Source of the DNA: a phage
Sequence record: PV467749.1
DNA: 64,000 bases
Reading direction: 5' to 3' (one strand)
Positions 58,669-58,750 of the stretch are shown here, one piece after another. Position numbers and translations under genes: made by a program. How positions within the stretch are numbered: the stretch's first letter is position 1; each line of letters begins with the position of its first letter. The notes below the pieces were generated by a model. It was not told the origin of the DNA. It was given only the letters and a program-made list of their open reading frames with translations, and made no database searches.

Positions 58669-58750
58669 TGGCCCAGGCGACAGGACTCGAACCTGCATAC
58701 TCCAGTTACTCGATTAACGACGATTTAGAAGACCGTTGAGATACGCCCGG
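58669..58750 (-). tRNA. aberrant tRNA-like element (candidate anticodon UCU; no normal D arm)
   Basis: 82 nt, CCA encoded. Good acceptor (CCGGGCG/CGCCTGG), T arm (GCAGG-TTCGAGT-CCTGT) and ACGGT-CTTCTAA-ATCGT hairpin. Only 7 nt lie between the acceptor and anticodon stems, and there is a 23-nt variable region. Confidence 0.4.

Follow-up and report, generated by a model that had tools for sequence, protein, structure and literature searches.

We analysed a 64,000-nucleotide (nt) stretch of phage DNA (sequence record PV467749.1; the window) and found that an 82-nt element on its minus strand, adjacent to a gene for tRNA-Ser(UGA), is likely to be a working tRNA-Arg(UCU) of the phage in which the D/anticodon domain is permuted. 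A previous reading made from the letters of the window (the sequence-only reading) had described the element as a tRNA-like gene lacking a D arm and had suggested that it might be a decayed duplicate, a structurally novel tRNA or a tRNA-derived regulatory RNA. Covariation and the presence of relocated D-arm parts support the second of these options.

In the RNA sense the element reads CCGGGCG-UAU-CUC-A-ACGGU-CUUCUAA-AUCGU-CGUUAAUC-GAG-UAACUGGAGUAU-GCAGG-UUCGAGU-CCUGU-CGCCUGG-G-CCA, with position n of the RNA lying at window coordinate 58751-n (Table 1). The location and all of the parts listed by the sequence-only reading were confirmed: a 7-base-pair (bp) acceptor stem, which includes a single G.U pair, an encoded CCA, an anticodon hairpin carrying UCU, a 7-nt gap before that hairpin and a 23-nt region after it. 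The T arm was also present, with a 5-bp stem and the loop UUCGAGU, although to call it 'perfect' was slightly generous because one of its pairs is a G.U. In the anticodon arm a 5-bp stem closes a loop of 7 nt in which position 33 is U and position 37 a purine. Between position 9 and the anticodon stem no D-arm hairpin (canonical positions 10–25) was found; only the sequence UAUCUCA stands there. When ARAGORN was run on the window it called four tRNAs, the element not being among them, and the Rfam tRNA model (RF00005) gave the element 29.3 bits, only just above the gathering score of 29, in an alignment from which the D arm was deleted. Covariance model R1, built from relatives, gave it 98.5 bits (E value ∼1e-25). 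With the family model, members scored >44 bits and ordinary tRNAs ≤35 bits.

A sensitive search with the 82-nt sequence returned 253 phage records in total, from unrelated taxa. The region around the element is 99.7% identical to Escherichia phage CMSTMSU, one of the Asteriusvirus jumbo coliphages (121Q/PBECO4 group), and 24 records from this group carried the element at 96–100% identity. About 230 records beyond Asteriusvirus had 82–90% identity; the groups with an 82-nt gene were Felix O1 and its relatives, phi92-like phages, Sugarland-like Klebsiella phages, KB57/Mydo-like phages, Salmonella phage 7t3 and a Serratia phage. The sequences flanking the gene were unrelated between phage groups. 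Among the 24 Asteriusvirus-group records the element was unannotated except in two 121Q records, where it was labelled 'tRNA-Leu(taa)'. Outside the 121Q group the existing labels, where there were any, were 'tRNA-OTHER', 'tRNA-Undet' and 'tRNA-TERM'. A check for a host origin found no match to the element in 5,426 complete Escherichia coli genomes.

Pattern scans of viral contigs produced hundreds of related genes. The scans gave at least 120 matches and the counts given below are among the matches listed. The principal set consists of 142 distinct sequences with an adenine at the position equivalent to A20, the anticodon being left unspecified in the pattern. Alignment A2 contains 48 distinct 82-nt members, which form the subfamily of the window's element, and alignment A4 is model-based, having been fitted to the family covariance model. 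A looser scan (GTATCTCA...YTTCTAA) gave 83 chance matches among 115 distinct sequences, which were filtered out, and a motif-free structural scan gave false positives in which canonical D arms were misread as anticodon arms. When the pattern used for the principal set was applied to one genome from each of 185,579 species, 25 loci were found, many of them on contigs of metagenome-assembled genomes. At one locus from an isolate, the element-type gene had a Caudovirus prohead protease gene on one side and a tRNA-Pro gene of the host on the other. Judged from these sequences, the permuted class is phage-associated.

The sequence-only reading had proposed covariation in related phages as a check, and the acceptor, anticodon and T stems all covaried. 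In alignment A2 the acceptor stem was 99.4% paired with double-sided changes at all seven pairs, the anticodon stem was 96.7% paired with double-sided changes at all five pairs, and the T stem was 99.2% paired with compensatory changes. Over the family alignments ∼95–97% of stem cells were paired, with hundreds of double-sided changes.

A further helix links positions 11–13, within the 7-nt gap, to positions 40–42, downstream of the anticodon arm. The two triplets change together, occurring as CUC/GAG, CAC/GUG, CAG/CUG, CAU/AUG, CGC/GCG and CUU/AAG. The central pair, 12:41, was Watson–Crick in all 142 listed sequences (UA 43, GC 43, CG 40, AU 16), compared with 39.5% in shuffles. Pair 13:40 was paired in 80% of the same sequences, against 42.6% in shuffles (CG 70, GC 37, UA 5 and others). 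For pair 11:42, the model-based alignment contained CG 90 times, AU twice, UA twice and GC once. An alternative pairing of CUC with a second GAG at positions 49–51 (in UGGAGUAU) was considered and rejected: positions 49–51 remain constant while CUC and the GAG at 40–42 co-change, and variant L130 has no GAG at 49–51 yet keeps the one at 40–42.

These data leave little room for a decaying pseudogene, or a rearranged duplicate of the neighbouring tRNA, that is carried by chance. A borderline Rfam score, a missing ARAGORN call and an anticodon arm nearly identical to that of the adjacent tRNA-Ser are what such a relic might show. However, the element is kept at 82–100% identity across the 253 phage records, which come from several families and have unrelated flanks, with compensatory substitutions in every helix, and the family model sets its members apart from ordinary tRNAs. 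The element shows neither a loss of constraint nor stem-breaking mutations. The 'decayed duplicate' option of the sequence-only reading is contradicted by these observations, and we regard a pseudogene as extremely improbable.

The region immediately 3′ of GAG has the sequence U-A-A-Y-U-G-G-A-(N)n-A-U and is followed by the T stem. This fits the D-loop consensus A14-R15-Y16-Y17-G18-G19-A20...A21; the counterpart D loop in the canonical tRNA-Arg of phage G17 is AAUUGGAUA. By analogy, A44 would be equivalent to A14, A45 to R15, G48-G49 to G18-G19, A50 to A20, A53 to A21 and U54 to Y48, while C11-U12-C13 would correspond to canonical positions 23–25 and G40-A41-G42 to positions 10–12. The A-U before the T stem was not part of the search pattern, and the A was present in 139 and the U in 141 of the 142 listed sequences. 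Positions 45 and 54 also covary. A45 was accompanied by U in 141 of the 142 listed sequences; a dedicated search for members with G45 gave 19 sequences, none of which had U in the position preceding the T stem; 13 had C there and six had G. In its covariation, 45:54 behaves like the R15:Y48 Levitt pair of tRNAs.

Because the D-loop consensus and the Levitt-type covariation lie 3′ of the anticodon arm, we read segment 10–21 (the 5′ strand of the D stem and the D loop) as having been shifted from the 5′ to the 3′ side of that arm, in effect a circular permutation of nucleotides 10–47. The description of the element as 'lacking a D arm' is misleading because the 7-nt 'linker' and GAG form a covarying 3-bp helix and the next 12 nt are the D-loop equivalent; the D-arm parts are present in another order. 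In a canonical tRNA the order is acceptor stem, positions 8–9, D stem 5′ strand, D loop, D stem 3′ strand, position 26, anticodon arm, variable loop and T arm. In the element the order is acceptor stem, U8-A9-U10, CUC, A, anticodon arm, linker, GAG, U-AAYUGGA..A-U and T arm. UAU at positions 8–10 was found in all 142 listed sequences, but was fixed by the search pattern. The linker between the anticodon stem and the 3′ strand of the new helix varied in length. Among 121 distinct listed sequences it was 8 nt in 44, 4 nt in 44, 5 nt in 19, 3 nt in 12 and 10 nt in two. The 8-nt form is specific to the window's subfamily, where it is conserved as CGUUAAYC; other subfamilies have 3–5 nt. In the folded structure of tRNA, position 10 is near 45, A21 is near U8 and 48, and position 9 is near 22–23. 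Because these positions adjoin in the canonical geometry, it is plausible that the permuted connectivity fits the canonical three-dimensional structure.

The identity nucleotides provide a separate line of evidence. E. coli ArgRS recognizes A20 (the main element), C35, U or G at position 36 and A or G at position 73. In the element, A50 follows G48-G49 as A20 follows G18-G19, and would be its spatial equivalent; the anticodon is UCU and the discriminator is G79. All 142 listed sequences with an adenine at the A20-equivalent position had NCU or NCG anticodons, that is, anticodons for Arg (UCU 88, ACG 31, CCU 18, UCG 3, CCG 1 and GCG 1). Arg anticodons were likewise seen in all 24 well-formed members from bacterial genomes with this adenine, and in all 19 members with both G45 and A50. 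Where the A20-equivalent was not adenine (65 distinct sequences), the anticodons were UAU (43), GAU (13), CAU (6), UAC (1), CCA (1) and UCU (1). The 62 members with UAU, GAU or CAU all had A73, which is part of the Ile identity set. A correlation of this kind between anticodon and identity nucleotides is expected of aminoacylated RNAs, and not of a decoy or a relic. Among the 142 listed members the discriminator was G in 63, A in 46, U in 30 and C in three, and CCA was encoded in 94.

The permuted layout was seen in many phage tRNA-Ile genes (UAU and GAU) and in genes with CAU at viral loci L297–L405 (for example L297, L299 and L305) and at L187:2425–2504. There were single permuted examples for Val (UAC, L366) and Trp (CCA, L403).

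A further line of evidence comes from the genomic slot that the element occupies. In phages G17 and ph0011 and in four more relatives, a canonical 77-nt tRNA-Arg(UCU) stands in the same slot, bounded by the same tRNA-Ser on one side and the same three small open reading frames (ORFs) on the other. None of these six relatives, which are annotated with the canonical tRNA-Arg, is among the 24 records that carry the element. Alignment showed that the flanks are homologous up to the gene borders and that only the tRNA body is exchanged between the permuted and canonical forms. Because of this, the comparison identifies the slot as a tRNA-Arg(UCU) slot with two alternative occupants. In 121Q a C replaces the U found at position 28 in the window, so that G-C takes the place of G.U in the anticodon stem.

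The tRNA sets of other phages point the same way. Felix O1 has 25 tRNAs and other clusters have 15–24; Arg(ACG) is present in them and canonical Arg(UCU) is not. The element lies within the Felix O1-type and other clusters, on the same strand, and carries the only UCU anticodon there. AGA is rare in E. coli. In the window, which is 35% GC, AGA makes up 29.6% of Arg codons in long ORFs, or 9.1 per 1000 codons.

Several observations weigh against a permuted, functional tRNA. The sequences compared are related, so that the counts are not independent events. The search patterns fixed C11, G42, UAA, UGG and the T loop (and also UAU at 8–10 for the 142-sequence set); the apparent invariance of C11, G42, UAA, UGG and the T loop is therefore partly by construction. 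The discriminator U of 30 listed members departs from the E. coli Arg norm. The minimum free energy fold of the single sequence was not tRNA-like and was no better than those of shuffled sequences (z = −0.38). RNAalifold, applied to 48 relatives, returned the three classical stems, with neither the new helix nor a GUUA/UAAC hairpin that the sequence-only reading had drawn after the anticodon arm. By nearest-neighbour energy, the structure with the new helix (−17.7 kcal/mol) was less stable than the three stems by themselves (−18.8 kcal/mol). Because energy-based methods do not recover the new helix, the case for it is made by covariation, in the form of the pair counts, and not by energy. UUA (34–36) and UAA (43–45) are invariant in the window's subfamily, and from these sequences an additional pseudoknotted UUA:UAA pairing may exist there.

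The GUUA/UAAC hairpin is central to a different structure, a truly D-armless tRNA in which the 7 nt form an unpaired connector and the hairpin belongs to a long variable region, in the style of mitochondrial D-armless tRNAs combined with a class II arm. The hairpin can be drawn and gave the lowest energy of the three options evaluated (−20.4 kcal/mol), and every one of the 48 subfamily members has complementary nucleotides at its pairs 34:45, 35:44 and 36:43. However, these pairs never vary and, because they are invariant, are uninformative in a comparison. Nine of 46 sequences do not form the closing pair 33:46, and none of the hairpin's pairs shows a double-sided change. The GAG in the supposed loop covaries perfectly with CUC in the supposed connector. 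In addition, the members with 3–5 nt linkers, which are most of the family, lack UUA and are unable to form the hairpin, although UAA is retained in them; in variant L130, CGUUAA is missing entirely. The comparative data thus do not support the GUUA-ATCGAG-TAAC hairpin as a conserved fold, and we consider a D-armless structure very unlikely.

A tRNA mimic acting outside translation might inhibit, or be a decoy for, a host nuclease or defence system aimed at tRNA-Arg, or might have a regulatory role through binding to ArgRS or some other tRNA-binding protein. Besides the non-canonical core of the RNA, this explanation can draw on the near confinement of the class to phages and on the fact that charging of the element is predicted from sequence. 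In passages of two papers, phage tRNAs are described as counteracting defences that target tRNAs (PMC10264068, PMC11555353). However, a decoy for an anticodon nuclease needs no 7-bp acceptor stem, discriminator or encoded CCA, and no A20/A73 pattern that tracks the anticodon. The element also takes the slot that elsewhere holds a canonical tRNA-Arg(UCU) and is the sole UCU tRNA in large phage tRNA sets. The use of one architecture for six Arg and three Ile/Met-type anticodons fits decoding. A mimic is therefore unlikely in our view, and the 'regulatory RNA' option of the sequence-only reading is not favoured because the anticodons track the identity nucleotides and a canonical tRNA-Arg(UCU) is replaced in the slot.

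Taking together the family, its covariation at the secondary and tertiary-type level, the association of anticodons with identity nucleotides and the equivalence of the slot, we infer how a permuted tRNA-Arg(UCU) would be arranged in three dimensions, processed, charged and used in decoding. The RNA would be transcribed together with tRNA-Ser(UGA) and then processed. The CUC(11–13)/GAG(40–42) helix would stack on the anticodon stem in the place of the D stem and the 12 nt after GAG would serve as the D loop, with G48-G49 docking on the T loop and A45 pairing with U54 in the manner of R15:Y48. A50 would act as the A20 equivalent, the main identity nucleotide for ArgRS. Acting as an elongator tRNA-Arg of the ordinary kind, the RNA would be charged by the host ArgRS and would read AGA, and probably AGG as well. 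The layout might have arisen and been kept as a neutral product of duplication and deletion within the gene, or might be maintained by selection, for example for insensitivity to tRNA-targeting nucleases.

The features of the locus are listed in Table 1.

Table 1. The permuted tRNA-Arg(UCU) gene, its parts and the features upstream of it (window coordinates)
Feature	Coordinates	Strand	Basis or remark
Whole gene, 82 nt, probable tRNA-Arg(UCU) with permuted D/anticodon domain	58669..58750	-	Family covariance model, Rfam tRNA
Acceptor stem 5′ strand CCGGGCG, positions 1–7	58744..58750	-	Pairs with 72–78
Connector U8-A9-U10	58741..58743	-	Invariant columns in alignment A2 and unconstrained scans
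C11-U12-C13, 5′ strand of D-stem-equivalent helix	58738..58740	-	Covaries with G40-A41-G42
Anticodon arm ACGGU-CUUCUAA-AUCGU	58720..58736	-	Anticodon UCU at 58727–58729 (plus strand AGA)
8-nt linker CGUUAAUC, between anticodon stem and helix 3′ strand	58712..58719	-	Linker-length comparison
G40-A41-G42, 3′ strand of D-stem-equivalent helix	58709..58711	-	Covaries with 11–13
D-loop equivalent UAACUGGAGUAU, 12 nt	58697..58708	-	Resembles canonical Arg D loop; 45:54 covariation
T arm GCAGG-UUCGAGU-CCUGU	58680..58696	-	Stem covariation
Acceptor 3′ strand CGCCUGG, discriminator G (G79) and encoded CCA	58669..58679	-	Sequence
tRNA-Ser(UGA), 4 nt upstream of the element	58755..58844	-	ARAGORN; Rfam 61.7 bits
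Promoter-like site TTGGAA-18-TATAAT with TG extension, ∼10 nt upstream of tRNA-Ser	58855..58884	-	10/12 consensus matches

The arrangement of tRNA-Ser followed by the element is kept in relatives, and the two genes are probably co-transcribed as a dimeric precursor. The promoter-like site is a consensus match only, and the number of such sites in the region is not above chance; its −10 region is invariant in four phages. No terminator-like site was seen at the locus between tRNA-Ser and the element. Both observations are compatible with a Ser-Arg dimeric precursor.

The likeness of the element's anticodon arm to that of tRNA-Ser, which the sequence-only reading had pointed out, is real; the 10-mer CAACGGTCTT is common to the two genes. 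This likeness does not point to derivation, as the same arm recurs in members from other phages, and an origin of the element from the neighbouring tRNA-Ser was rejected. Only at anticodon positions 35–36 does the anticodon arm of the tRNA-Ser differ from the arm of the permuted tRNA-Arg. The tRNA-Ser anticodon stem is ACGGU/ACCGU beside the permuted tRNA-Arg and CUUGU/ACAAG beside the canonical one (the window compared with loci L003 and L001), while the remainder of tRNA-Ser(UGA) is nearly identical between phages with the two forms. Gene conversion, or exchange of a shared segment, may underlie this switch of stem. Immediately downstream of the tRNA pair there are three tandem, overlapping, paralogous ORFs of 54 amino acids at 58161–58647 on the minus strand (58647–58483, 58486–58322 and 58325–58161). 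All three start with MTHEEWM and they are kept in relatives as 'hypothetical protein'.

Other members of the family showed additional features. Tandem sets of two or three permuted Arg tRNA genes with differing anticodons, for example CCU beside UCU, were found in single contigs (L203:8180–8420, L255:1175–1539, L216:1230–1389 and L030:12999–13429). In some members without an encoded CCA, the flanks lengthen the acceptor stem to ∼14 bp (e.g. TCAGAGCGAAGGTG...CACCTTCGCTCTGA), an extension that may be a processing signal. At such acceptor-extended loci (L014:3702–3783, L017:955–1036 and L149:10443–10536) ARAGORN reports an overlong 'tRNA-Arg(tct)' of 94–98 nt. A tmRNA gene (tag peptide ANSMNASAFALAA) was found at L163:6424–6703, in a viral tRNA cluster with a permuted tRNA-Arg(UCU).

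Further unusual tRNA genes were seen in the course of the analysis. In the window, a tRNA gene with a CAU anticodon (Met or Ile2 type; ∼56388–56692, minus strand) has a group I intron of ∼230 nt inserted after its anticodon, at ∼56425–56654 (Rfam Intron_gpI, 99.1 bits). Its 5′ exon ends with ...ACGACUCAU, the intron ends with ...UAUACG and the 3′ exon begins with AAUCGUU; ARAGORN made no call for this gene. Klebsiella phage Roth37 has a second 'tRNA-OTHER' gene (L006:111–195) with normal-looking D and T arms and an oversized, odd anticodon region, for which there was also no ARAGORN call. ARAGORN 'tRNA-???' genes with two-base anticodons (ga, gt) occupy conserved places in KB57-type clusters (L007:1063–1137 and 2739–2808; L009, L034 and L065).

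The element has much in common with canonical tRNA-Arg(UCU), such as E. coli argU and the 77-nt tRNAs of G17 and ph0011: a 7-bp acceptor stem, a 5-bp anticodon stem, a CUUCUAA loop, a UUCGA T loop, a discriminator G or A, CCA, the D-loop sequence A-R-Y-U-G-G-A..A, the presumed codon and, for G17 and ph0011, the genomic position. It differs in having no D hairpin after position 9, with one strand of the D stem 5′ of the anticodon arm and the other strand and the D loop 3′ of it, at the usual site of the variable loop. As in class II tRNAs (Ser, Leu and bacterial Tyr), there is a long segment, 23 nt in the element, between the anticodon and T arms. In class II tRNAs, however, this segment forms a self-contained variable-arm hairpin and the D arm is normal, neither of which is seen in the element, where the segment pairs with 11–13 and supplies the D loop.

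Permuted segment order is also known from the tRNA genes of Cyanidioschyzon merolae. There the whole gene is permuted, with the 3′ half before the 5′ half, and processing restores a normal cloverleaf. In the element, in contrast, both the 5′ and the 3′ end have their usual form and the permutation is confined to the internal D/anticodon domain; the rewiring would persist into the mature RNA. The tRNA-like domain of tmRNA, the 3′ tRNA-like structures of plant viruses and the bacterial YrlA RNAs would share with the element an L-shape-type architecture in which D loop and T loop contact each other through a connectivity not found in tRNAs. These domains are parts of larger RNAs and have no decoding anticodon arm, whereas the element is free-standing and tRNA-sized, with a canonical anticodon loop and identity nucleotides.

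In D-armless mitochondrial tRNAs (mammalian mt-tRNA-Ser(AGY) and Ascaris mt-tRNA-Ser(UCU)) the D stem or the whole D arm is missing and the tertiary structure is described as flexible (PMC7609411). The element resembles them in its short connector between acceptor and anticodon stems and in being missed or misjudged by standard models; the reading of AGN codons is shared by coincidence. The unpaired connector and the absence of a D-stem equivalent and an elbow that mark these tRNAs are not found in the element, which comes from phages of bacteria and keeps a covarying D-stem equivalent, a D-loop equivalent with GG, a Levitt-type pair and a full T arm. Because the D-stem equivalent and the elbow are retained, we do not class it as a D-armless tRNA of the mitochondrial type. 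Allo-tRNAs with 8/4 or 9/3 acceptor/T branches are, like the element, natural structural variants found by sequence mining, some of them in phages (PMC5389517). They differ from it in altering stem lengths within the cloverleaf order, while the element alters the order of the parts.

Rfam 15 has no separate family for the permuted layout. We did not find it described in the full-text literature, including reviews of non-canonical tRNAs, in a search that left most subscription journals outside, and in a 2024 paper the known bacterial tRNAs are all said to be canonical (PMC11551756). With moderate confidence, we lean towards a broader proposal: that these genes represent a new tRNA topology, mainly of phage tRNA-Arg and tRNA-Ile with rare Val and Trp cases and present in phages such as Felix O1 and phi92, in which the D-stem 5′ strand and D loop lie 3′ of the anticodon arm while the L-shaped core, the identity elements and decoding are kept. 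Such tRNAs would be effectively invisible to tRNA finders, and the reason for their retention may be that the altered core evades tRNA-acting factors of host or phage.

It is probable that Felix O1-, phi92-, Sugarland- and many 121Q-type genomes have a gene for an AGA decoder, at present unannotated or labelled 'tRNA-OTHER', 'Undet', 'TERM' or 'Leu'. Phage tRNA inventories would then be systematically incomplete, which bears on work on codon usage and on how phages evade defences by means of tRNAs. The naturally permuted scaffold could serve in the design of orthogonal tRNAs, and why phages carry this layout, mainly in decoders of rare Arg and Ile codons, becomes a testable question. If the proposal is true, translation, ArgRS and IleRS, RNase P and EF-Tu would all accept a differently wired core, and it would be the contacts, rather than the path of the backbone, that matter in the core of a tRNA.

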